This document shows positions 9,891 through 48,193 of a stretch of 64,000 nucleotides of DNA, one piece after another (within the stretch, counting starts at the first letter, position 1; each line of letters begins with the position of its first letter). The notes beneath the pieces are model-generated. The model saw only the letters and a list, made by a program, of their open reading frames with translations. It ran no database searches and was not told the DNA's origin. This DNA comes from Prolixibacteraceae bacterium UBA6029 (GTDB lineage Bacteria > Bacteroidota > Bacteroidia > Bacteroidales > Prolixibacteraceae), in NCBI GenBank assembly GCA_002429385.1, contig DIZL01000048.1, positions 800 through 64,799 on the forward strand, read 5' to 3'. Position numbers and translations under genes: made by a program.

Positions 9891-11099
9891 TTACAGATTC
9901 AACTTCTTTCGTATGTTCTTCGGTATGGCATCTTTATTCACCATGATCGAAGTTGTTTTGAATTCCACGTAGGGTTTTGAAGCATAAAAGAAACCATCAT
10001 AATCGTTATACTTGCCCCAGGAGTTCTTTACTTTGTAATAGATATTACCAATCTGATCTTTAGCTGTTCCACAGATCACCATTCCATGGTCGTCAGTAGT
10101 TTGGTAATCATCAAAATCAATTTGCCGAAGCTCCTGTGTAATTACCTTTTCAGGGCCAGGTTTGCTAAGTTTGTACAAATCCTCATTTTTTTCCTTCTCA
10201 CTCATTTTTTCCCATTTGGTGATTTCAGCGTCAGTCATATTTGCCTTATCAACCACAGGAACTACTGCAACACCTTTTTGTGAAGTAGAGAATCCTTTTT
10301 CACTCACATCGGCAGCCCATGCAACGGTATAACCAGTATTGACCGAATTATCAATGATCTCTTCCATCTCGTTCAACGGAACATTATACACCTCATCCCA
10401 CGCCCAGTTGTCAGGAACTTCGATGATAAATTTCTCGTAGAACGGATGATGTGTATAAGAAGAAATTTCAACATAATCGTCCATATTCAGTCCTACATAC
10501 TCTTTGGCAAAACTCTTCGGTGTATATTCTTTATCCTGATATTTAAAGGTTTCAGGAAGTTTTCCAAGATAGGTATCCAGAGTTCCTTCTATCACATCAT
10601 GCCAGGCTGTTGTAAGCTTCTTGTTCGGATTATCGACTACTGCTTTTACTTCATCCAAAAGAATCCGGTCCATCTCTCCATGGACATGTTTCTCTTCACC
10701 GTAATTTAATCCGTTATATACTTCATCGGGCACAATACCGTAATTCCGGATTGCATTGGTGACATCATGAAAAGCGCCGCCTCCGCCAAAATTTAAACTG
10801 CCATGCATCCTGACATATTTATACGCTTTATCAGAATAGGCATGATGAACAACAAACATTTCAGATAAATCGACTGAAGGTTTTCCCAACCGAAGCATTT
10901 CGGCTTCCAGAAAACCCAAACCTGAAAACGACCAACAGGTGCCTGAACGATACTGATCTTTAACTGATGTACAGGGAATATCCTTTATTGCAGTGAATTG
11001 ATAAGCTTTTTCCTTCTCAGCTTCCTTTTTTTCCTGAGCAGAAACAACAAAAGAGGCCATCACCACTACTGCCAGGAAAAGATTTCTTAATTTATACAT
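9891..11099 (-). CDS. pepC: aminopeptidase C / bleomycin-hydrolase-type C1B cysteine peptidase
   Basis: 402 aa with a signal peptide. The papain-type active-site context is QYRSGTCWSFSGLGFLE. Confidence 0.82.
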   Translation of the reverse strand: MYKLRNLFLAVVVMASFVVSAQEKKEAEKEKAYQFTAIKDIPCTSVKDQYRSGTCWSFSGLGFLEAEMLRLGKPSVDLSEMFVVHHAYSDKAYKYVRMHGSLNFGGGGAFHDVTNAIRNYGIVPDEVYNGLNYGEEKHVHGEMDRILLDEVKAVVDNPNKKLTTAWHDVIEGTLDTYLGKLPETFKYQDKEYTPKSFAKEYVGLNMDDYVEISSYTHHPFYEKFIIEVPDNWAWDEVYNVPLNEMEEIIDNSVNTGYTVAWAADVSEKGFSTSQKGVAVVPVVDKANMTDAEITKWEKMSEKEKNEDLYKLSKPGPEKVITQELRQIDFDDYQTTDDHGMVICGTAKDQIGNIYYKVKNSWGKYNDYDGFFYASKPYVEFKTTSIMVNKDAIPKNIRKKLNL

Positions 11100-11425: not shown

Positions 11426-12301
11426 TTGCACCGTATGAAATTTAATTCAGTGATACTATTACTGATCCTTACGACAATCTGGAACACCCCTGTCGTTCGG
11501 TCACAGGTTATACTGAAAAACTGTATTTTTCAAGATGAAGACAAACATCTGGTAGAAAAAAAATTAAACAGTTTTTCTCAGGAAATTAATAAGCCTATTG
11601 CTGACCTCGTAGCCGACATCGGTTTTTCATTTCTTGGAACTCCTTACGTTGCAGCAACTCTTGAAAACGGGCTTGAAGAAAAACTTGTAATTAACCTTCG
11701 TGAACTGGACTGTACCACATTTGCCGAAACTTGCCTGGCCCTGGCACGAACGGTTAAATCAGGGAAGACTGATTTTGAATCGTTTGCCGCTCAACTTGAA
11801 CAAATAAGGTACCGGGATGGGATTCGAAATCAATATCCTTCACGCCTGCACTATTTCAGCGAATGGATTCACAATAATGCCGAAAAGAAAATCATCAGTG
11901 AAGAGCCAAATCTCACTGGCGTAAAGCTTATTAAACCTATAAATTTCATGAGTGAACATCCCGGAGATTATCCTGTGCTGAAAGCTCATCCTGAATTGAT
12001 ACCATCAATAGCTATTCAGGAAAAGAAACTTTCGTCCAGGGAAATTTATTACTTCCCCAAAAACAATCCCGGCAATCTGCTTAAATCATTGCACCACGGG
12101 GACATTATCGGCTTGACTTCTGGCATTGAAGGAATCGATATCAATCACGTCGGCATCGTTATCCGTAAAGGCAACGGGTTTCATCTGTTGCATGCTTCAC
12201 TGAGCGGTGAAAAAGTAGTCTTATCGGATGGTCCCATTACTGATTTTATACGACCTGAATCAAAGAATAGCGGAATTATGATTGCACGACCGATTTTCTA
12301 A
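11426..12301 (+). CDS. DUF1460-family (amidase-like) secreted protein
   Basis: 291 aa with a signal peptide. The LDCTTFAETCLALAR block is typical of DUF1460 as I recall it. Confidence 0.55.
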   Translation: MHRMKFNSVILLLILTTIWNTPVVRSQVILKNCIFQDEDKHLVEKKLNSFSQEINKPIADLVADIGFSFLGTPYVAATLENGLEEKLVINLRELDCTTFAETCLALARTVKSGKTDFESFAAQLEQIRYRDGIRNQYPSRLHYFSEWIHNNAEKKIISEEPNLTGVKLIKPINFMSEHPGDYPVLKAHPELIPSIAIQEKKLSSREIYYFPKNNPGNLLKSLHHGDIIGLTSGIEGIDINHVGIVIRKGNGFHLLHASLSGEKVVLSDGPITDFIRPESKNSGIMIARPIF

Positions 12302-12347
12302 TCCTCACCTTTGGATTTGCCAAATAATTTGTATCTTTAGGTTTCAA

Positions 12348-12527
12348 ATGAGTTCAAGCCAAAGTCTGACGATACGATTCAGAAATGAACTCCCTGACTT
12401 CGGACACCAATTTTATATTCCTCAAAATCTACTTCAGGAAAACCATAAACAGGCTTTCGAGCTACACGGAAGGGTTCTGGGTAGGGATTGCGTCGTGTTT
12501 CCTTCGGATGAATTAATCTATGATTGA
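12348..12527 (+). CDS. Candidate 59-aa protein of unknown family (coding status unproven)
   Basis: ATG..TGA frame conserved in length and phase with 45167..45346(-), with 33/59 identical residues. A TATCTTTA box lies 8 nt upstream of the ATG. The last 13 codons lie in the conserved core around the palindrome. Confidence 0.4.
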   Translation: MSSSQSLTIRFRNELPDFGHQFYIPQNLLQENHKQAFELHGRVLGRDCVVFPSDELIYD

Positions 12528-12579
12528 TTTGCAACTGTACAAAGATCGCGATTTTAGTACTGTTGCAGATCAGTCATAG
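12518..12579. repeat. 62-bp imperfect palindrome (23-bp arms, 16-nt loop), copy A
   Basis: Arm ctatgattgatttgcaactgtac, loop aaagatcgcgatttta, arm gtactgttgcagatcagtcatag. 20/23 arm positions pair. Flanked by ttccttcgg (12500-12508) and ccgaaggaa (12590-12598). Confidence 0.85.
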
Positions 12580-12796
12580 TACAGATATACCGAAGGAATA
12601 CCCTCTCAAACCCCTCCCTGAATACTCTGGGATTCCTTCGATCAGTTACTTTAATGGATGGACTAATCGTAAAAAGACCTATTGAAAAAGAATCCAGGGG
12701 AGCAGCTCTTCAGGGGATAATGCGACCCCTGCATATTTAATCCGCAATTTATTCTCCTTTTTTATAAGCTATTTCCTTGAAAGAGGTCGTTTTTGT

Positions 12797-12804
12797 TAAT
12801 TTTG
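12797..12804 (+). promoter_or_regulatory. -7 box TAATTTTG upstream of the acyltransferase gene
   Basis: Exact TAnnTTTG motif 24 nt before ATG 12829. It lies downstream of the TTG used by the ORF track. Confidence 0.5.
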
Positions 12805-27822: not shown

Positions 27823-28083
27823 GTCAGTAGGTTTTTTTCAGAAACAACATAAGAGCTTTTACCGCAGACATCGTTTTTCGTTATGGTGTTTGTGGCGCAA
27901 GGTACAAAATATCAGTGAACTTACGGCTGATTCATGCTATTGTTTGACAACCAACCTTCAATTTTCCCTTGGTGATGTACAGGGTTGCACTTTGGCCTTA
28001 ATGATTTAAAAGGATCCTCCTCACTGATTGGCTTAATTGGCAATTAATCCTGTCCATTTCCTTATTGATTGCCTCGGGATCGG

Positions 28084-28230
28084 GAGGGTATCCCTTGGGT
28101 ATTCCTTCTCTATATTTGTACTATGATTGATCTATAACTGTACAAAAATTCGTATCTTTGTATAGATAGAGATCAATCATAGTTTAATCATTGAAAAGGG
28201 ATACCCAAGGAATACCCAAGGGATACCCTC
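28084..28230. repeat. 147-bp palindromic element with perfect 24-bp terminal inverted repeats (copy B of the palindrome family)
   Basis: IR-L gagggtatcccttgggtattcctt (28084-28107) is the exact reverse complement of IR-R (28207-28230). The inner 62-bp palindrome is 28121..28182. The 78-bp core has 67/78 identity to the 45.1-kb copy by manual alignment. Confidence 0.9.
28153..28160 (+). promoter_or_regulatory. -7 box TATCTTTG facing the DUF6266-like gene (a second box TATATTTG lies at 28111..28118)
   Basis: Exact TAnnTTTG motif. The 13-mer tatctttgtatag is identical to 32009..32021 upstream of the paralog. Confidence 0.55.
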
Positions 28231-28258
28231 TGTAGTATTAACTTAACACGAATTAATT

Positions 28259-28897
28259 ATGGCACGAATGAAAAGAAACATCGGTGATCTGGTCTCAGGA
28301 CGGATCGGAAACGTGGTATTTTACACACGGAATGGAGTTAACTATGTACGTGCAGCCCCTGATCGGAAAAAAGATTCCTGGTCTCCGCAGCAGTTGTTGC
28401 ACCGCCAGCGGTTTAGCAAGGCCAGTTATTTATGGAGCCAGCTGAAAAAGACAAAAGTAGCCCCTATCTGGAATTTAGCAGCCGAGCGTATGAATGGGTA
28501 TGCATTGTTTATGAAAGCCAATATGCCAGCCTATGCCTTGGACGGAAGTATTATTGACCCCAGGATGCTGAAGATTTCGACGGGCAAACTGCATTTGCCT
28601 ATGGATTTTGAAGCAGCAAGGGAGTCCATTGGAAGCACTTTGATTGCGGTTAGCTGGAAAAATGACCCCAATATGAAGGGCAAACGCCTGGAGGATGAAT
28701 TAATGGCCGTAAGCGCTGCCGATGGACATTACTCTGCCCTGACTCCTACGGGACTGCTGAGAAGCGCCCAAAACGGCTCATTTACCCTGCCTGTGAAGCC
28801 AGCAGATGCAACGCATATTTACCTGTTCTTTGCCTCTAACGATGGATTGGACTATACGGAGAGTGTATGTGTTGAGATTGGGAGCCGCGGTTTTTAA
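28259..28897 (+). CDS. DUF6266-like protein (Bacteroidota-restricted, function unknown)
   Basis: 212 aa with no signal peptide. The N-terminal G-x-x-G-N-V-V...G..YVR...Q...R.RF pattern is shared with the paralog at 32093. The DUF6266 name is assigned from memory. Confidence 0.55.
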   Translation: MARMKRNIGDLVSGRIGNVVFYTRNGVNYVRAAPDRKKDSWSPQQLLHRQRFSKASYLWSQLKKTKVAPIWNLAAERMNGYALFMKANMPAYALDGSIIDPRMLKISTGKLHLPMDFEAARESIGSTLIAVSWKNDPNMKGKRLEDELMAVSAADGHYSALTPTGLLRSAQNGSFTLPVKPADATHIYLFFASNDGLDYTESVCVEIGSRGF

Positions 28898-29274
28898 CCG
28901 TGTACAGTTATAAAAAGCGATTAAAAATCACTGGTCCCGTTTGTTGTCAGCATGTCCGAATCCAAATAATGAAATCAAAGAACTAATTTCAGCCCAACAA
29001 GGCATGGGAAATGGCTACTAATTCATTATCTTTAGTATTTACTACGAATGTCGTCTATTGTAACAGCGGACAAACCAAAACCATTTTGCAATGAAAGCAA
29101 GAATTTATCAGGCAGTCTTGAAAGCCGCACATAACGAACTGCTCAGGTTATCAACACCCAAAGCAGCATAATGACTAAAACAATGCGTAACATGAGTTAT
29201 TATTAACACTTTCACTTGTTGAAAACTTTAATTAATATATTTTCAATCTTCAGAATGTCTTCAGAATTACATTC

Positions 29275-36486: not shown

Positions 36487-38400
36487 CTAAAGCCTTTTCG
36501 CAGTGGGTTCATTCCTCAAATATTTATGAATGACCTCAGTCAACTTGGCTCTGCGGATTGGTTTTGAGAGGTAATCATCACATCCTGACTCCAGTACCCT
36601 TTCCCGTTCCGTACTTAAGGCAAAAGCGGTTTGGGCAATAATGACTACCTCTTTATTGAATTTTCGGATTTGCCGGGTAGCCTCATAACCATCCATCTCA
36701 GGCATCCTGATGTCCATCAGTACCAGGTCGATATCAGGGTTATTCCGACAGACATCAACAGCTTCAATTCCTGTTCTCACTCTTAAAAGTTCTTTGCAAT
36801 ACTTCTCCACAGAGAGAATGATCAGCATTTCAGAAAATTCATCATCCTCGGCGACCAATATCTTCAATTTCCTGGCGTGGACATCTTCTTCTTCTTCAGT
36901 TGCACCTGAATCTTTTATTTCCATTTCATCCAGCGGATCAACCTTAAGAGGAATGGTGAAATAAAATTCCGAACCTTTCCCAGGTTCACTTAACACCCGC
37001 ATTTTACCCCCCAATAGTTCAACATATGCTTTGGAAATAGATAAGCCCAACCCTGCACCTTCATACACCCTATTCAGAAAATCACTCCCTTTCCTGAATC
37101 GATCAAAAATGTAAATCAGCTGATCAGAACGGATCCCAACACCTGAATCCTTTACGTAAAATTCAACTTCGACAGGTTCGCCTGATTGTTGGCCTGTTAC
37201 GATCCGTCCATCGCCTTTACTCTGATCGGCATAGACATAATTACACCCTAATTCAATAAAGCCTGTATGCGTAAATTTAATAGCATTTTTAACCAGGTTG
37301 GTAAGTATGGCATACACTTTTTCACGATCGGTATGTGTTTTTGTTTTATTCTCAGGCAAACGATCAACCAGGAATATCTGCAATCCTTTTTGTTCCACTT
37401 CAGGTTTGAAGAAGGAATAAATATAGTTAAGCTGTTTGCTCAAATTAGTTTCAGTACTGGAAACGGTCATTTGGCCTGATTCAATTTTTGAAATATCAAG
37501 AATATCGTTGATGATATTAAGCAGACGATTACCGCTCCTTTCAATAATAGAGATATATCGTTGTCTTTTTTCCTCTGGCAAATCAGAGGGCTTCAGCAGT
37601 TCGGCAAAACCCAGTATTCCATTCATCGGTGTTCTGATCTCATGACTCATATTTGAAAGAAAGGCTGTCTTTAACCGATCGCTTTCTTCTGCTTTTTCCT
37701 TTGCTGCAATTAACTCTGCAGCACGTTTTTCTTTCTCCCTGATCTGTGTGACGAGTTCATTGTTGGCAACAATCAAGTGAGTAATACGCATTTCTTTCTC
37801 CCTGTTTTGAGCCTCAATCACCTTGTTTTTTTCAATAAGGTTGAGCTCTGCCAGCTTAAGATCAGTAATATCAACACCAATAACTAAGCAATTTTCACCG
37901 CTATCGGTAATGATGGCAGAAAGGTAAACATAAATCGGAGGGTTGCTCCTGGTTGACAGGGTCACCTCGCAGGTTTCCCTTGCAGAACTTCTGAATGTGT
38001 TTTTGAGAAAATGATTGAAGGTCGTTTTTACATCATCGGAGATATAATATCCTAACGGATGGTTTATTAACGCTGATCTTTCTTTTCCCAGCATCTGCGA
38101 TCCATATAGGTTTAAATCCAGAATAGTACCTTCTCTGGAAAGTTTAAAATAAACTGAGGGTGCAAAATCGTATAGCTCAGCATATTTTTCATCTGCCAGT
38201 TCTGCAGCACGTTCTTTCGCCAGTGCCAGTTCCTGGTTCTGTAATTCGAGTTCAATCTGATATACTTCAAGCTCATGGATGATTTTAAACACGTCAGCTT
38301 CAGAATGAGGTGAACCTGGCATTGATGGTTTCCTTTTCAGCAACTCCATTGCCCTGTTTCGCAGGCTGGAGTATTCCGAAGTTTTATCTATATTCTTCAT
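36487..38400 (-). CDS. Hybrid sensor histidine kinase/response regulator (coiled-coil, PAS, HisKA, HATPase, REC)
   Basis: 637 aa. H-box [14 protein letters not shown], ATPase G-boxes ([14 protein letters not shown]), and receiver KILVAEDD...[14 protein letters not shown]...SKP. Confidence 0.85.
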   Translation of the reverse strand: [637 protein letters not shown]

Positions 38401-41173: not shown

Positions 41174-41197
41174 TGAGGTAAGTCCGAATACTCTTTT

Positions 41198-41294
41198 CTT
41201 GCCACTAAGACACCAAGACATTAAGTCTCACCAAAGCTTCATATTCAGATAATAGGTTTGGTGAGACTTAGTGTCTTTGTGTTTTAGTGGCAAG
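41198..41294. repeat. REP/MITE-like palindrome (38-bp arms, 35/38 paired)
   Basis: cttgccactaagacaccaagacattaagtctcaccaaa (41198-41235) pairs with tttggtgagacttagtgtctttgtgttttagtggcaag (41257-41294). Same word family as 23043..23136. Confidence 0.8.
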
Positions 41295-41428
41295 AAACAG
41301 ACTTATCAGAATCTCAAAATTAAGGATATCTGAAACTGCACCCTTAAAATAAATATATAATTTTAAGAGTAGGTTCTAAACACTTTTGCAGTTTCTTTGT
41401 AGTTAGTAATTCCAAGTATAATCGAAGA

Positions 41429-43177
41429 ATGAGTAATTCAATCCATCAGAAAGAGCCGGGAAAGCAATCCAAGCCAAATGTGTTTAGTTTACTGAAGCCA
41501 TACCGGGGAATGATTACATTCCTGGTAATTTTTGCCCTGCTCAGTAACGGAGTCAATTTATTGCTGCCGAAAATCATATCCAGAGCCATAGATGCATTTA
41601 CTGCCGGACATTTTGTATTCAGGACCGTGGTGCTTGAGTTTTCCGTGGCCGCTTTTGTCATTTTCTTCTTCACCTATCTTCAAAGCATTGTGCAGACCTT
41701 TGCATCCGAGAAAGTCGCCCGCGACCTAAGAACGCGCTTATCAGACAAAATATCGCGGCAAAGTTACACCTACATCCTTAAGACCAATCCGTCAAAACTG
41801 CTGACTAACCTTACTTCGGATATCGATTCCATAAAGATGTTTGTATCCATGGCCGTAGTCACCATCTTTTCGTCCATATTTATGATTGTCGGTACCTCTG
41901 TATTGCTGATCAGGATCAACTACAAACTGGCCGTTCCGATTATTGCAATTATACCCATCATTGGAGGTACCTTTTTTATTGTACTCAAGAAAGTGCGCGT
42001 CTTATTCAAACGAAGCCGTGAGGTCATCGATTGGCTCAACAAGGTTATCAACGAAAGCATCATGGGTTCTGCCATTATCCGTGTACTCAATGCACAGCAA
42101 GCAGAATACCATAAATTCATGGAAGCCAACACTGAAGCCCGAAACCTTGGCTTAGGCATTCTGCGTCTGTTTGCAGCGCTTATCCCAATCGTCACCTTTA
42201 CTGCCAATCTGGGGATGCTGGTGATTCTTATGCTGGGTGGTCATTTTGTAATTACCGGGAGCATGTCGCTCGGTGATTTTGCAGCCTTCAACAGTTACCT
42301 GGCTTTACTTATTTTCCCAATATTGATGATCGGGTTTATGAGCAATATCATTGCCATGGCCTCTGCATCCTATGCCCGCATCAATGAGGTGCTTGAGGCT
42401 CCTGAAATCATTGAAACAGGGACAGTGAAAGCATCGCTTCATGGAAACATCGAACTCATCAATGTTTCTCTTTCGTATGGTGACAAGCCAATTTTAAAAG
42501 ACATTTCCTTCTCAGTAAAAGGTGGAACGCAGGTCGCCATTATTGGGCCCACCGCTGCCGGAAAGAGTCAGTTGCTCAACCTGCTTACCGATCTGGTAAA
42601 ACATGATCAGGGAACCATCCTGTTCGATGGTCGTGACATTGAATCTTACGACAAGGAATCGTTTCGCAGCCAAATAGGATTTGTACTTCAGGATAGCGTT
42701 ATCTTTAATATGAGCCTTCGCGAAAATATTGCTTTCAGCGATAAAGTAACTGACGAATCACTCGAAAAAGCGATCAATACTGCCGAACTGAGAGACTTTG
42801 TCGATTCACTCCCCGATAAACTGAACACCATTGTTTCTGAACGTGGCACAAGCCTTTCAGGAGGACAAAAGCAACGAATCATGCTGGCCCGTGCGCTGGC
42901 TATAAATCCCAAAATAGTATTGCTTGATGACTTTACTGCCCGTGTCGATCGTGAAACAGAGAAAAAGATCCTTTCCAATCTCGAAATGAATTATCCTGAC
43001 CTTACTTTGCTGTCGATTACTCAGAATATAGCTTCGGTAAAGCATTTTGAACAGATTATTTTACTCATGGAAGGCGAAGTTATTGCGACAGGAACACACC
43101 GGGAGTTAATGGAAACCTGTACGGAGTATGTACAGATCGAAAATTCACAACGAAGTACAAGTCACTATGAACTATAA
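41429..43177 (+). CDS. ABC transporter permease/ATPase (type I exporter half-transporter)
   Basis: 582 aa with a 6-TM domain. Walker A GPTAAGKSQ, signature LSGGQKQR, Walker B VLLDD. Confidence 0.85.
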   Translation: MSNSIHQKEPGKQSKPNVFSLLKPYRGMITFLVIFALLSNGVNLLLPKIISRAIDAFTAGHFVFRTVVLEFSVAAFVIFFFTYLQSIVQTFASEKVARDLRTRLSDKISRQSYTYILKTNPSKLLTNLTSDIDSIKMFVSMAVVTIFSSIFMIVGTSVLLIRINYKLAVPIIAIIPIIGGTFFIVLKKVRVLFKRSREVIDWLNKVINESIMGSAIIRVLNAQQAEYHKFMEANTEARNLGLGILRLFAALIPIVTFTANLGMLVILMLGGHFVITGSMSLGDFAAFNSYLALLIFPILMIGFMSNIIAMASASYARINEVLEAPEIIETGTVKASLHGNIELINVSLSYGDKPILKDISFSVKGGTQVAIIGPTAAGKSQLLNLLTDLVKHDQGTILFDGRDIESYDKESFRSQIGFVLQDSVIFNMSLRENIAFSDKVTDESLEKAINTAELRDFVDSLPDKLNTIVSERGTSLSGGQKQRIMLARALAINPKIVLLDDFTARVDRETEKKILSNLEMNYPDLTLLSITQNIASVKHFEQIILLMEGEVIATGTHRELMETCTEYVQIENSQRSTSHYEL

Positions 43178-44930: not shown

Positions 44931-45114
44931 AATCAAAATTACTGTTTCACAAACCATTTATCTGATTACAAGATAAACTACAATCCTGAAGAGTCCTAAT
45001 TGTTCAGAAATTGCGAAAGAGATATCCCACAAAGTGCCTGATCGGAGAAATATAGTCTTAACCAAGGTCGGGTTTGGATAGGGATTGAGAGGGTATTCCT
45101 TCGGTATATTTGTA

Positions 45115-45176
45115 CTATGACTGATCTATAACTGTACTAAAATTGCGATCTTTGTACAGTTGCAAATCAATCATAG
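45115..45176. repeat. 62-bp imperfect palindrome, copy D
   Basis: Arm ctatgactgatctataactgtac, loop taaaattgcgatcttt, arm gtacagttgcaaatcaatcatag. aactgtac/gtacagtt pair perfectly next to the loop. Confidence 0.85.
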
Positions 45177-45346
45177 ATTAATTGATCCGAAGCAAACACG
45201 ACGCAATCCCCTTTCGGATACTTTCCGTGTAGTTCGAAATCAGGTTTAATGGTTTCCTGAAGAATATTTGAATGGAGAGAGAATTGGTTTTCGGAGTCAA
45301 TAAGATCATTTTTATATCGTATCGTCTGACCCTGGAGTGAACTCAT
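45167..45346 (-). CDS. Candidate 59-aa protein, paralog of 12348..12527 (coding status unproven)
   Basis: MSSLQGQTIRYKNDLIDSENQFSLHSNILQETIKPDFELHGKYPKGDCVVFASDQLIYD. Not in the ORF track (<60 aa). A TATCTTTA box (45355..45362, minus strand) lies 8 nt upstream of the ATG. Confidence 0.4.
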   Translation of the reverse strand: MSSLQGQTIRYKNDLIDSENQFSLHSNILQETIKPDFELHGKYPKGDCVVFASDQLIYD

Positions 45347-45700
45347 CTGAGTTTTAAAGATACAAATATTTAGGCAAAGGATATTTCTTCTGAAAATTAG
45401 CAGAAAATAAAAACATTAAAATGAGGAAAATATATACTGCTGCACTTGTTGATAGTTACTGAAAAAAAATCCACGAATATTATTTGTTATTTTCCTTTAA
45501 CTAACAGGCAAAATAATTCATTGTGAAAGAATTATTTTACAAAAAAAACGCTATTTTCTTCAAAATATTTTGTATATTTATAGAGTAATGACACCCTGAA
45601 ATCGTCATTTAAAATGCACACCTGTGACGTTTTCGATTCTTAATTCTTCCGCATACGTCGAACACCAAGTCGGCTTTCGTTTTTGATTAAAGAGTATCAC

Positions 45701-48193
45701 ATGAAATCCACACTTGAAATTCAAATCTCAACCAATGATCTTTTAAACAACATTGAGTTTAGCGACATTTTTAATCTGGAAGATATCCAACACCTACAGG
45801 ATTTGTTTGCCGATGCAAATGGAGTAGCATCCATCATTACTCATGTTGACGGCACTCCGATAACCAATCCAAGTAATTTCTGCCGGTTGTGTCGTGACAT
45901 TATCCGCAGTACTGAAAAAGGATTTATAAACTGTATGAAATCCGATGCCGCGCTTGGACTGAAAAATTCTTCAGGTCCGGTTATGCACCAATGCCTGAAT
46001 GGCGGGCTGTGGGATTCAGGTGCCCGGATAACTGTTGGCGCAAAGCATATTGCCAACTGGATCATCGGGCAGGTGCGCAATGAAGAACTTGATATTCATC
46101 GTATGATAACCTATGCCGATGAAATCGGGGTTAACCGGGAAGTTTTTCTCGATGCCCTGAACGAAGTTCCTGTGATGTCGGTTGAGCAACTTGGCAAGTT
46201 ATCGAAAATGTTGTTTTTGGTTGCCAACGAACATTCTGAAAGAGCATATAACAATTGGCTGCTGAAAGCACAAATTGCCGAACGGGAAAAAACCAGGGTT
46301 TTATTGGAAGAATCGGAGAACAGATTTCAGGTCTTATTTAATATAGCTCCATTTGGATATCAATCACTGGACTTTGATGGTCATTTTATTGAAGTCAATC
46401 AGTCATGGATAAATACTTTGGGATATACTCAGGAGGAAGTAACCGGCAAATGGTTTGGTGACTTTCTTTCACCGGCCAGTCGTGAGGAATTCCATAAGCG
46501 ATTCCAGGTTTTCAAAGCAGAAGGTAAGATTCACAGTGAATTTGAGATGATTCATAAGAATGGGAGAAAGCTTGATATTGCTTTCGAAGGGAAAATTGGA
46601 AATGATTTGAATGGAAAATTTAAACGAACGCACTGCATATTACAAGACATTACGGAGAGCAAACGGGAAGAAAAGAGGATCAGTGAGAGCGAAAAAATGC
46701 TGCGCGAGGCCCAGCACCTGGCCCAAATGGGAAGTTGGGACTGGACAATAGCAACTGACACGGTGAAATGGTCGGAAGAACTTTATCGCATCAACGGGCG
46801 CAATCCAGATTCAGCGGCACCTTCATTCTCCGAAATGTCATCTTATTTTATGCCCGAAAGTTGGAAACGGCTGAGCGAGACAGTCGCCAAGGCAGTTCAG
46901 AATGGAGAACCTTATGAGCTGGAACTCGAAATAGTGCTTCCGGATGGCACAACCAAATCTACATCAGCACGGGGCGAAGCAGATTGTGATGCCAACGGCA
47001 AAATCACAGGACTTCAAGGTACAGTTCAGGATATTACCCAACGGAAACGAGTGGAGGATGAACTTAAACGTAAAAACGAAGAGTTGGTTAAACTCAATTC
47101 CGACAAAGATCGCTTTATGTCCATCCTTGGACACGATCTGAAAAGTCCGTTTAATTCCATTCTGGGCTTTCTGGAAATCTTATCCGCCAATATTCGTGAA
47201 TATGATCTGGACACCATAGAAAGTCAGATTAGTATCGTTGAAACTTCAGCAAAGCGTGTTTTTTCTTTATTGGAAGACCTTTTACTGTGGTCAAGATCAC
47301 AATCCGGCCAATTGCCCTATGAACCGCAAAGACAGAATCTCACAGCTATTTGTCAGGACATCCTGTCGGACATGAAATTAATTGCTGACACAAAAAACAT
47401 CATCATCAGTGATTCTGTTTCGGATGAAATAGCTGTCTATGCTGATACGGATATGTTAAAAACGGTCTTACGAAACCTGATTTCCAATGCTATAAAATAC
47501 AGTAATGCGGGAGGTCAAATCGAGATAAACACCAGGCAGATAGGATCGGAAACAACAATTTCGGTTTCAGACACCGGTGTTGGGATGGCGCCGGAAGTGG
47601 CCAGCCATCTCTTTGAAATCTCACAAATCCATTCAACCAAAGGGACTGCAAACGAAACAGGAACCGGATTAGGATTATTACTATGTAAGGAATTTGTGGC
47701 AAAACATGGTGGCAATATCTGGGTTGAGAGTGAAGTTGGTAAAGGTTCAACCTTTTATTTTAGTATTTCTTCAAATTTTGAACCGAAAGAACAAAACATC
47801 GTAGGAAATAGGAAAAAAGAAGAGAATCAGCCGAAAAAACTGAATATCTTAATAGCCGATGACGACGATGCTTCGGAACAACTTCTAACAATAGCAATGG
47901 AGAAATTTGGAGGGGAGGTTTTAAAGGCAAAAACAGGGATTGATGCCGTTGAAGTCTGTCTGGATAATCCCGACGTTGATTTAGTACTAATGGATATTCA
48001 AATGCCGGTAATGAACGGATATGAAGCTACCCGGCAAATCAGGTTGTTTAATAAAAAGGTGATTATCATTGCCGAAACAGCGTTTGGGTATGCCGAAAGC
48101 AAAGAAGAGGCATTGAAGGCTGGATGTAATGATTATCTTCAAAAACCTATAAAGCGAAAAAAATTAATAGAAATGGTGGAGAAATATTTCTAA
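45701..48193 (+). CDS. Hybrid sensor histidine kinase/response regulator with an N-terminal PocR-type sensory domain and PAS domains
   Basis: PocR-like block (LQDLFADANGVASIITHVDGTPITNPSNFCRLCRDIIR), two PAS regions, H-box GHDLKSPFNSILGF, HATPase, and receiver DLVLMDIQMPVMNG. ATG 45701 is preferred over TTG 45683. Confidence 0.8.
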   Translation: MKSTLEIQISTNDLLNNIEFSDIFNLEDIQHLQDLFADANGVASIITHVDGTPITNPSNFCRLCRDIIRSTEKGFINCMKSDAALGLKNSSGPVMHQCLNGGLWDSGARITVGAKHIANWIIGQVRNEELDIHRMITYADEIGVNREVFLDALNEVPVMSVEQLGKLSKMLFLVANEHSERAYNNWLLKAQIAEREKTRVLLEESENRFQVLFNIAPFGYQSLDFDGHFIEVNQSWINTLGYTQEEVTGKWFGDFLSPASREEFHKRFQVFKAEGKIHSEFEMIHKNGRKLDIAFEGKIGNDLNGKFKRTHCILQDITESKREEKRISESEKMLREAQHLAQMGSWDWTIATDTVKWSEELYRINGRNPDSAAPSFSEMSSYFMPESWKRLSETVAKAVQNGEPYELELEIVLPDGTTKSTSARGEADCDANGKITGLQGTVQDITQRKRVEDELKRKNEELVKLNSDKDRFMSILGHDLKSPFNSILGFLEILSANIREYDLDTIESQISIVETSAKRVFSLLEDLLLWSRSQSGQLPYEPQRQNLTAICQDILSDMKLIADTKNIIISDSVSDEIAVYADTDMLKTVLRNLISNAIKYSNAGGQIEINTRQIGSETTISVSDTGVGMAPEVASHLFEISQIHSTKGTANETGTGLGLLLCKEFVAKHGGNIWVESEVGKGSTFYFSISSNFEPKEQNIVGNRKKEENQPKKLNILIADDDDASEQLLTIAMEKFGGEVLKAKTGIDAVEVCLDNPDVDLVLMDIQMPVMNGYEATRQIRLFNKKVIIIAETAFGYAESKEEALKAGCNDYLQKPIKRKKLIEMVEKYF

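Follow-up and report, generated by a model that had tools for sequence, protein, structure and literature searches.

A small non-coding repeat inserted between genes of uncultured Prolixibacteraceae, with a palindrome shared with the promoter regions of multicopy DUF6266 genes

Is the structured segment in the spacer between an AmiA-like gene and an lpxL-like gene, found again in inverted orientation elsewhere in the same contig, a small gene or a non-coding repeat, and where does it come from? To answer this we analysed 64,000 nt of contig DIZL01000048.1 from Prolixibacteraceae bacterium UBA6029 (hereafter the window), in which a preliminary description had pointed out two inverted copies of a module with a promoter-like box, a 59-codon frame and a long palindrome. 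The inverted copies were recovered by the repeat search, which matched 12316-12613 with the reverse complement of 45081-45378 over 298 nt (82% identity; 32,467 nt apart), and pairwise alignment gave 258 nt with zero indels from the ATG to the CCCTC box of both copies (12348-12605 and 45346-45089). As described, both keep the same ATG, the same TGA and 59 open codons, with 33 of 59 residues identical and 41 of 180 nucleotides different over the ORF. The identity is very uneven along the unit, about 73-75% in the ORF part and about 95% in the palindrome, and a 20-mer of the palindrome occurs in the window only at copies 1 and 2, while the chance expectation is 0. The dispersed, structured character of the module, its long palindrome and the unrelated gene contexts of its copies were all borne out; both copies are genuine and represent a small repeat, non-coding and inserted between genes.

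The unit turned out to be longer than first proposed. A C-rich tail and a conserved block continue it on the 3' side, reaching about 12668 (copy 1) and about 45025 (copy 2). Judging from spacer lengths in relatives, the whole inserted element of copy 1 covers 12305..12737 (plus strand, 433 nt). On the same strand it comprises a variable 5' extension (12305..12431), which holds the TATCTTTA box at 12332-12339 and the ATG at 12348, a conserved pre-palindrome core (12432..12485; alignment A4) with an invariant TTTCGA and a small hairpin, an imperfect palindrome (12486..12611; axis 12548/12549) delimited by folding and by the ungapped alignment A6, and the C-rich tail CCCTCTCAAACCCCTCCC with the conserved 3' block ATTCCTTCGATCAG..ACTTT..GGAT..TCG (12600..12668). 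In the small hairpin CTTTCG (12454-12459) pairs with CGGAAG (12467-12472), for which RNAalifold reported one compensatory change, in the module at locus L026. The palindrome has outer arms at 12486-12507 and 12590-12611, a 10+10-nt internal loop and an inner 62-nt hairpin at 12518-12579. Copy 2, at an ABC exporter/PocR kinase locus, occupies 45025..45380 on the minus strand, with its TATCTTTA box at 45362-45355, the ORF at 45346-45167, outer arms at 45208-45187 and 45104-45083, the inner hairpin at 45176-45115 and the 3' block reaching to about 45025. The tail and 3' block are common to all module copies, with nhmmer E-values from 2e-8 to 5e-2.

The spacer between the AmiA-like and lpxL-like genes measures 527 nt in the window. 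In the orthologous locus L044, which also contains the element, it has 445 nt, while it is 71-83 nt in three relatives (L045, L046 and L047) that lack the element at the same intergenic site. Copy 1 came by insertion, directly 3' of the stop codon of the upstream gene. It is flanked by direct repeats of TAATCC on the plus strand, the left one (12299..12304) including the TAA stop of the AmiA-like gene and the right one at 12738..12743; the hexamer is also present on both sides of the insert in L044, and the three empty sites have one stretch equivalent to it. TAATCC is a candidate target-site duplication seen at a single insertion event, the window and L044 sharing descent. Block 12745-12790 was also considered as a part of the repeat and was rejected, the empty sites showing it as the native lpxL-like promoter region.

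The element resembles a MITE in its short length, its non-coding nature and its dispersal, and in that relatives include both filled and empty sites. Its ends (12305... and ...12737) are not complementary to each other, either in the window or in L044, and the palindrome is internal. No transposase-bearing relative was found, and the only gene-bearing relative is a DUF6266 unit, described below, which has no transposase-like match. Since there are no terminal inverted repeats and no mobilising enzyme was identified, the element departs from the textbook MITE. The preliminary description had named an ordinary MITE, present in hundreds of copies, as an alternative; this does not agree with a copy number that appears low (2 copies in 119 kb of this genome). 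Integron attC sites, retron msr/msd and IS200/IS605-type ends were considered and set aside, as their core motifs appear to be absent and the element presumably has no adjoining reverse transcriptase or TnpA/TnpB.

Nine modules were obtained from DNA searches and two further loci through ORF calls (L054-L057, counted as one locus, and L058), and all of them adjoin unrelated genes. Six are long copies with the 5' extension, namely copies 1 and 2, L014, L026, L054 and L058. In L044, L024, L022 and L004 the extension is absent or replaced, and these copies enter the profile at positions 89, 54, 99 and 77, respectively. The palindrome pattern had 0 matches in GTDB representative genomes and 0 in IMG/VR, and DUF6266 together with the element had no match in phage or plasmid collections. 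The family is probably a small set of dispersed repeats of about 350-430 bp, confined to one lineage of uncultured Prolixibacteraceae. This poorly studied host lineage belongs to uncultured freshwater Bacteroidota, in which the repeat family was previously undescribed; the source habitats are the Trout Bog Lake hypolimnion and those of related JGI samples.

On balance we lean towards reading the module as a non-coding repeat of the ERIC/Correia kind, which would act via its long hairpin or its repeated 11-nt boxes. ERIC/IRU (127 bp) is likewise a non-coding, imperfect intergenic palindrome found in either orientation at low to moderate copy number, likewise conserved between species, with an incidental ORF and with larger variants formed by internal or extra sequence. 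The module itself is an intergenic imperfect palindrome, present in both orientations and conserved between species. An effect of the ERIC RNA hairpin on the stability of neighbouring mRNA has been proposed (PMC2229807). The module differs from ERIC in being three times longer, in its internal palindrome with conserved non-palindromic flanks on both sides, in having neither short terminal inverted repeats nor TA ends, in its phylum, and in that its palindrome is common to the promoter of a multicopy protein gene. Correia/CREE/NEMIS elements of Neisseria are small dispersed insertions with filled and empty sites, promoter-like boxes, a protein-binding site and long hairpins affecting adjacent genes (PMC2649163, PMC2229807). 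Correia elements have 24-26-bp terminal inverted repeats, TA duplications and hundreds of copies, whereas for the module no terminal inverted repeats were found, the flanking repeat is a mere 6-bp candidate, and copies are few. Besides, YPAL/RU-2 of Yersinia is a 168 bp palindromic repeat with a 56-aa ORF that is open in the consensus (PMC2229807); it has no sequence relation to the module and serves as a precedent for an ORF as a by-product of a repeat, although YPAL ORFs are often fused to neighbouring genes and such fusion is not seen in the modules. Small palindromic repeats with promoters and incidental ORFs affect mRNA stability (PMC2229807, PMC2649163).

Copy 1 had been presented as one of two, while a third member of the palindrome family, which lacks the ORF, was found by the repeat search and alignment A6 at 28070..28232 (plus strand), in the promoter/operator-like region of a DUF6266 gene (28259..28897, plus strand; 212 aa; Pfam PF19781), the usual partner of the palindrome. 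In this region GGGTATCCC boxes are repeated with an 11-nt period along each arm, and a perfect Bacteroidota -7 box, TATCTTTG (28153-28160), is located at the centre and directed to the gene. There are at least four DUF6266 paralogues in this genome, which are 84-91% identical and have unrelated flanks. The module palindrome is homologous to the palindromic promoter region upstream of every DUF6266 copy, with a T-to-G change of the central -7 box in most modules. The core palindrome of the module is borrowed from the promoter region of this multicopy gene. For the other parts of the module, a decayed opposite-strand DUF6266 gene was tried as the source of the 5' part and showed no similarity, and derivation of the 3' block from the upstream flank of DUF6266 units was plausible by eye and unsupported by nhmmer. 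A promoter between inverted repeats is also the arrangement of Bacteroidales invertible promoters (PMC9723704, PMC7366714), from which these palindromes differ by a unique centre of only about 6-16 nt and by arms that are arrays of 11-nt boxes. An inverton was rejected because polarity is constant: the 29 aligned palindromes of A6 and those of three further paralogues share the same polarity to their flanks, with no sign of inversion.

Compared with shuffled sequences, the palindromes of copies 1 and 2 and of L054 fold with z-scores of -4.7, -4.4 and -7.6, respectively, and the palindrome of L058 is decayed (z = -1.1). Pair counts were based on A6 (29 palindromes, ungapped). The inner helix is 89% paired, and in the outer helix both sides have changed at 13 of 22 pairs. 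As a hint at the strand, the ratio of G.U to A.C pairs on the given strand is 29:9 in the modules and 49:61 in the DUF6266-linked copies, the module excess being weak, as it comes from related copies and from 14 columns vs 6. A second hint is that the module is co-oriented with the next gene at 6 of 7 independent loci (P ~0.06), and the palindrome centre lies 279-364 nt upstream of the start codon of that gene. Folding energy over all palindromes showed no consistent strand preference. Rfam 15 gave 0 matches in the whole window at the gathering threshold and only chance-level matches at 12200-12800 with E <= 10, and terminator scans were negative.

The rival explanation that survives best, though we rate it as rather unlikely, places the function at the DNA level: the 11-nt boxes would bind a sequence-specific factor controlling DUF6266 promoters, possibly DUF6266 itself, and the modules would be extra, gene-less platforms that titrate this factor or bring neighbouring promoters under its control. 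In its favour, 18 of 19 gene-linked palindromes have a perfect TAnnTTTG at the exact centre, directed to the gene, as have three additional paralogues of this genome; gains and losses of boxes are matched between the arms, and the DUF6266-linked copies lack a G.U strand bias. Distant DUF6266 homologues (43-57% identity) keep the architecture with other boxes (AGTACT-type, AAGGTTAC-type and TATCTGTGTA-type), the centre being TATCTTTG or TATATTTG in L038-L040. AlphaFold2 models DUF6266 (pLDDT 83) as three helices and an Ig/Fn3-like domain with a basic N-terminus, which could suit this role, but the model matches Fn3/Ig-like sandwiches only and no DNA-binding fold was recognised. Searches with DUF6266 gave no PHROG match and only weak PDB sequence matches (E >= 0.0017), to designer beta-propeller proteins; no partner gene is conserved downstream, where the neighbours vary, and we found no mention of DUF6266 in the literature. 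Besides the lack of a recognised DNA-binding fold, it counts against this explanation that the left-arm boxes are degenerate in copies 1 and 2 and that the conservation of the pre-palindrome stretch and the 3' block would be left unexplained. A protein-binding DNA site accounts for the 11-nt periodicity, and for the part that the palindrome plays as DNA at DUF6266 genes, no less well than an RNA hairpin does. With about 11 bp per turn in A-form RNA as well, the periodicity does not decide between a DNA and an RNA role.

The promoter-like box leads to another explanation. Part of what had been proposed for it stood, as TAnnTTTA is found 8 nt before the ATG position in all six full-length copies (TATCTTTA in 5 copies, TAACTTTA in 1), while the fit to the -7/-33 consensus is partial. 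In Bacteroidota sigma-A promoters, the consensus places TAnnTTTG, the -7 box, at -12 to -5 and a TTTG around -33 (PMC9723704, PMC7366714). The module box agrees with TAnnTTTG at 5 of 6 specified positions, the final G being A in every copy, and the only TTTG common to the module copies is 12 nt upstream of the box, not 19-21. The DUF6266-linked palindromes carry the perfect central -7 box, and the modules the TAnnTTTA in their 5' part. In the long forms, a stand-alone sRNA gene might be transcribed from this box over about 300 nt, and its product would have one arm antisense to the 5' leaders of DUF6266 mRNAs and regulate that gene family in trans. We regard this as unlikely. The fixed distance of the box in all six long copies, the polarity of the module opposite to DUF6266 genes, the G.U bias for the given strand and the left arm of L014, which by direct reading is complementary to the predicted DUF6266 leader over at least 29 of 30 nt, speak for such an RNA; yet 4 of the 9 DNA-found copies have no box, including the conserved orthologues L044 and L024, the terminator scans and Rfam were empty as noted above, the 5' half has no predicted conserved structure, and the arms would be locked inside their own hairpin. 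Moreover, the element is palindromic, so complementarity to the leaders arises in either orientation, which counts against the sRNA.

The 59-codon ORF of copy 1 (12348..12527, plus strand) had been taken as a conserved peptide, an interpretation that finds no support in view of broken frames, which the preliminary description itself regarded as incompatible with a peptide, no codon-position bias and dN/dS of about 1. Stops occur in two of the four full-length copies found by DNA search: L014 has ATG changed to ATT and three in-frame stops, and L026 has an in-frame stop at codon 41. For the orthologues, L024 (of copy 2) is frameshifted by a 1-nt insertion, contains a TGA in frame and loses homology inside the ORF at window position 45313, and in L044 (of copy 1) the box is missing together with the ATG and the beginning of the frame; the start region is also missing in L022 and L004. 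Differences at codon positions 1/2/3 number 13/18/10 between copies 1 and 2, and 18/17/13, 14/15/14 and 21/23/21 in other pairs. Second positions change as often as third ones, there is no third-position excess, and dN/dS ranges from 0.43 to 1.45 across the six copies. In these comparisons the frame gives no sign of selection as a protein.

A leaderless small-protein gene, with a 59-aa peptide functional at least in the long-form copies, is very improbable and already largely refuted. What it can claim is that the frame is open in 4 of the 6 long copies (copies 1 and 2, L054 and L058) with shared ATG and stop, that ATG, open frame and stop would all survive 41 random substitutions, as in copy 2, with P = 0.05, that the box 8 nt upstream suits a near-leaderless mRNA, and that L058 keeps the frame despite its decayed palindrome. 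Besides, a phmmer search yielded 5 short ORF calls that are similar to the peptide (47, 52, 59, 59 and 98 aa; E from 2e-9 to 4e-4), but all 5 sit on other module copies with varying starts and stops, and database ORFs are found because they are open, which is also how L054 and L058 were reached. Gene calling in the two source assemblies passed over the ORF, 17% of shuffles of the 433-nt element contain an ATG-ORF of 59 aa or more, and the best-conserved "C-terminus" is merely the left arm of the palindrome. The peptide has no homologue in the word-indexed protein search and no relative in Pfam, PHROG or PDB. The frame is most likely an accident.

Although not kept as a protein, the element has, by the orthologue comparisons, been kept under constraint since its insertion, including the symmetry of its arms. 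Generally, orthologous module cores are 70-85% identical, compared with 54-62% at four-fold degenerate sites of flanking genes. For copy 1 and L044, a 306-nt core aligns with zero indels; identity is 72-85% in the core (72% in its pre-palindrome part) and 70% at the 3' end, whereas four-fold sites in the two flanking genes are 54% identical. For copy 2 and L024, which is 86% identical to the window over 45313-41000, the module is about 75-85% identical, as estimated by eye over its whole length and not per segment, compared with 62% at four-fold sites, and two matched 11-nt indels are found, one on each arm. A functionless selfish or decaying repeat, held similar only by recent spread and gene conversion, would agree with the variable 5' end, the truncated, orphan and decayed members of the family (L058, L010, L017 and L030) and the synteny breaks at elements (L024 vs the window; L048 vs L049), but it is the least credible explanation, given this orthologue identity and the indel-free 306 nt despite saturated synonymous sites, and gene conversion does not explain a conservation that covers locus-unique parts.

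Under the preferred reading as an ERIC/Correia-like non-coding repeat, each module has, from 5' to 3', an optional extension with the TAnnTTTA box, a conserved stretch of about 55-95 nt, the imperfect palindrome (about 125-150 bp), in which 11-nt G-rich and C-rich boxes surround the 62-nt hairpin, a C-rich tail and the 3' block. By analogy with ERIC or Correia elements it would act in cis. Long forms would be transcribed on the given strand from the box that they carry, or else transcription would come by read-through from a neighbour, and the RNA would fold into a hairpin of about 130-150 nt, about 280-360 nt ahead of the co-oriented gene, which may change the processing, stability or read-through of adjoining transcripts. 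The repeated boxes may also bind a factor acting at DUF6266 promoters.

It is possible as well, though we give it little credence, that DUF6266 genes, each with its palindromic promoter/operator, are self-contained units of at least 1 kb present in several copies, and that the modules are gene-less satellites of this unit. The 11-nt box sequence varies together with the protein between lineages, which suggests that the protein may recognise its own palindrome. If true, these would be an autonomous/non-autonomous pair, mobile or self-regulating, without a recognisable transposase, or alternatively a regulon of their own, in which the non-coding members exert feedback on the DUF6266 family.

In conclusion, the 59-codon frame should not be annotated as a gene, as some pipelines have already done in other assemblies. 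What is new in comparison with ERIC and Correia elements is that the hairpin is also that of the DUF6266 promoter, which belongs to a multicopy gene without an assigned function. The -7 box at the exact centre of lineage-specific arrays of 11-nt boxes provides a lead to the control of DUF6266 promoters, and the same lead could show both what DUF6266 does and how a promoter palindrome was reused as a portable, selected non-coding element.

The preliminary description had reported two inverted copies of a dispersed module, and a repeat search of the window recovered them as arms of 298 nt with 82% complementarity (12316-12613 and 45081-45378). In the pairwise alignment, the stretch from the ATG to the CCCTC box is indeed free of indels and 258 nt long in each copy, TATCTTTA lies 8 nt upstream of the ATG in both, and a 59-codon frame is open in both, with 33 of 59 residues identical and 41 of 180 nucleotides differing. 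The identity between the two copies is uneven, about 73-75% in the ORF part and about 95% in the 3' part, which forms a long hairpin (-87.1 kcal/mol, z = -4.7, and -73.3 kcal/mol, z = -4.4, in the two copies). Nothing relevant at the module was found in Rfam. The repeat is genuine, as is its structure, and both are larger than had been described.

Aligning all module copies gave the anatomy in five parts. A variable 5' extension with TAnnTTTA is carried by six long copies (copy 1, copy 2, L014, L026, L054 and L058), and is missing or replaced in L044 and L024, the orthologues of copies 1 and 2, and in L022 and L004. Next come a conserved pre-palindrome stretch, in which TTTCGA is invariant and a small hairpin is present, then the palindrome itself, a C-rich tail, and a 3' block, ATT(C/T)C.TC.GATCAG..ACTTT.

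Orthologues of the lpxL-like gene were compared at the spacer that separates it from the AmiA-like gene, and this spacer turned out to be 527 nt in the window, 445 nt in L044 (lpxL identity to the window: 97% for the protein, about 84% for the DNA) and 71-83 nt in L045, L046 and L047, relatives with an empty site. The insert of copy 1 spans 12305-12737 (433 nt) with TAATCC on each side, the left one including the stop codon of the AmiA-like gene; it has no terminal inverted repeats, and the native promoter is kept beyond it (TAATTTTG at 12797). The comparison shows that copy 1 arrived by insertion. The module seems to have a low copy number: the 64-kb window has two, and a further 55 kb of the same genome has none.

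A third relative, matched to both copies by the repeat search, lies at 28074-28232 and is a near-perfect palindrome without the ORF part. It belongs to a unit at 28020-28965, in which the palindrome (28070-28232) stands 27 nt upstream of a DUF6266 gene (28259-28897, forward strand) followed by a 3' region (about 28898-28965). A scan for the core of the palindrome in public metagenome contigs gave 31 loci; in about 20 the palindrome stands in front of a DUF6266 gene, in 7 it lies within a module like the two window copies, and a few are orphan palindromes. Palindrome and gene share 80-88% nucleotide identity between copies while the flanks are unrelated. Every named relative is a Prolixibacteraceae MAG with three or more DUF6266 copies. 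The source genome is MAG GCA_002427965.1, which is also represented by JGI metagenome 3300013427, and it has at least four paralogues, with the palindrome at every one. The DUF6266 gene and its upstream palindrome together form a unit of 1 kb or more that is present in multiple copies.

Several other features accompany this unit. Many database copies are on contigs of about 1 kb, as assembly-breaking repeats would give. Most copies have G-rich 8-mers and two small hairpins (CCGCGGTTTTTAACCGCGG and GCGATTAAAAATCGC) 3' of the stop, and short tandem repeats of variable number (AATTCGTGTAATTGTATTCAATCGT / ACGAATTACACGAATT type) occur between palindrome and ATG (L005, L006, L015, L019) or after the stop (L015, L018, L019, L029). 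In several paralogous loci, ORF6N- or RhuM-domain genes follow DUF6266, and then Abi_2, HTH_17 and a type I restriction HsdR-like gene (contexts of ORF6N/RhuM type at L050/L051:10751-12908, L052:10726-20624, L012:4042-4389 and downstream of DUF6266 in L019); such neighbourhoods are typical of mobile or defence islands, and the window copy has no such neighbour. Besides, the window contains an unrelated palindrome at 41195-41297 (44-nt arms, 91% complementary, 15 nt apart), with boxes like TAAGACAC/CAAGACAT, about 130 nt upstream of an ABC exporter gene starting at 41429, and without a copy in any fetched locus. A 189-nt inverted repeat (36621-36809 and 47898-48086, 71% complementary) lies inside large ORFs, 36487-38400 on the reverse strand and the PocR-type histidine kinase at 45683-48193, and most likely represents paralogous domains, not a repeat element.

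At the exact centre of the palindrome, 18 of 19 gene-linked copies and three more paralogues have a perfect Bacteroidota -7 box directed toward the gene (TATCTTTG or TATATTTG; consensus TAnnTTTG, -12 to -5; PMC9723704, PMC7366714), and each arm is an array of 11-nt boxes (GGGTATCCCTT). Gene-linked palindromes of this kind resemble a promoter with operators. Distant homologues (43-57% identity) keep this layout with boxes of other types, AGTACT-, AAGGTTAC- and TATCTGTGTA-like, in inverted arrays of about 11-nt boxes (L034:2900-2985, L036:2769-2932, and upstream of DUF6266 in L038-L041), and TAnnTTTG is perfect at the centre in L038, L039 and L040. The box sequences are lineage-specific and appear to co-vary with the DUF6266 protein. 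In the structure model of this protein (pLDDT 83), a basic N-terminus and three helices accompany an Fn3/Ig-like sandwich, and no enzyme or transposase fold was recognised; DUF6266 has no mention in the searchable literature and no match in phage and plasmid collections.

By sequence, the module is demonstrably related to this putative promoter palindrome. The 29 palindromes align without gaps about a single axis, with the inner helix 89% paired and the outer helix 67% paired, both sides having changed in 13 of 22 pairs. The module polarity is opposite to that of the DUF6266 gene, and its central box is GATCTTTG or GGTCTTTG in 5 of 7 modules. An altered central box is associated with gene loss (Fisher P = 5e-4), which may reflect a single ancestral change because the copies are related.

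Between the window and L044, the module aligns over 306 nt without an indel, and its core is 72% identical in the pre-palindrome, 85% in the palindrome, 79% in the tail and 3' block and 70% at the 3' end, against 54% at four-fold sites of both flanking genes. The copy 2 region is 86% identical to L024 across 4343 nt; the module is roughly 75-85% identical, judged by eye and not tallied per segment, against 62% at four-fold sites. Two 11-nt indels, one per arm, indicate that a box was gained or lost symmetrically. The 5' extension is unconserved in both pairs: 34 unrelated nt replace it in L044, and the homology of L024 stops at window position 45313, within the ORF. As judged from these alignments, the element is evidently under constraint, with the symmetry of the arms maintained. 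Between L048 and L049 (ahead of the DUF6266 gene at 10001) and between the window and L024 (position 45313 against L024:2374), the synteny of these closely related contigs ends precisely where the palindrome or module lies, so these repeats may be sites of genome rearrangement.

We infer the mode of action from several hints that point to RNA of the given strand: the ratio of G.U to A.C pairs is 29:9 among modules and 49:61 where the palindrome is gene-linked, the box is conserved among long forms, and in 6 of 7 independent loci the module points the same way as the gene that follows. The start codon of that gene comes 279-364 nt after the palindrome centre, and no terminator was found between the element and the gene. 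These hints fit an ERIC/Correia-like element (PMC2229807, PMC2649163), as which the module may act in cis through RNA from the given strand. A DNA operator or decoy would fit about as well, since the palindrome arms carry 11-nt boxes, it seems clear that the same palindrome acts at the level of DNA at DUF6266 genes, and short forms without the box are yet conserved. The folding energies of all palindromes do not favour either strand consistently.

A conserved functional peptide, as had been proposed for the 59-codon ORF, is not supported, given broken frames, even codon-position changes and dN/dS of 0.43-1.45 (six long copies). The frame is not intact in other copies: L014 reads ISSCQSLT and then two successive stops, L026 has a stop at codon 41, L024 has a frameshift and a stop, and the start is absent from L044, L022 and L004. 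Differences between the window copies are spread evenly over codon positions (13/18/10), and gene callers left the ORF uncalled in both source assemblies. An ATG-ORF of at least 59 aa is present in 17% of element shuffles, and a copy would retain ATG, open frame and stop after 41 random substitutions with P = 0.05. An exhaustive phmmer search returned five peptide-like short ORF calls (47, 52, 59, 59 and 98 aa; best E-value 2e-9), all on further module copies (L054-L058), with variable ends and again no coding signature; their presence in the database is due only to their open frames. In L058 the frame is kept despite a decayed palindrome, and translation therefore retains a low probability. 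Palindromic repeats are known to contain incidental ORFs (PMC2229807). The results show the module to be a non-coding repeat.

In conclusion, the module is a new variant within a known class, the small palindromic intergenic repeats, and is unusual among them in having no terminal inverted repeats and in having its core in common with the putative promoter of a multicopy gene family.
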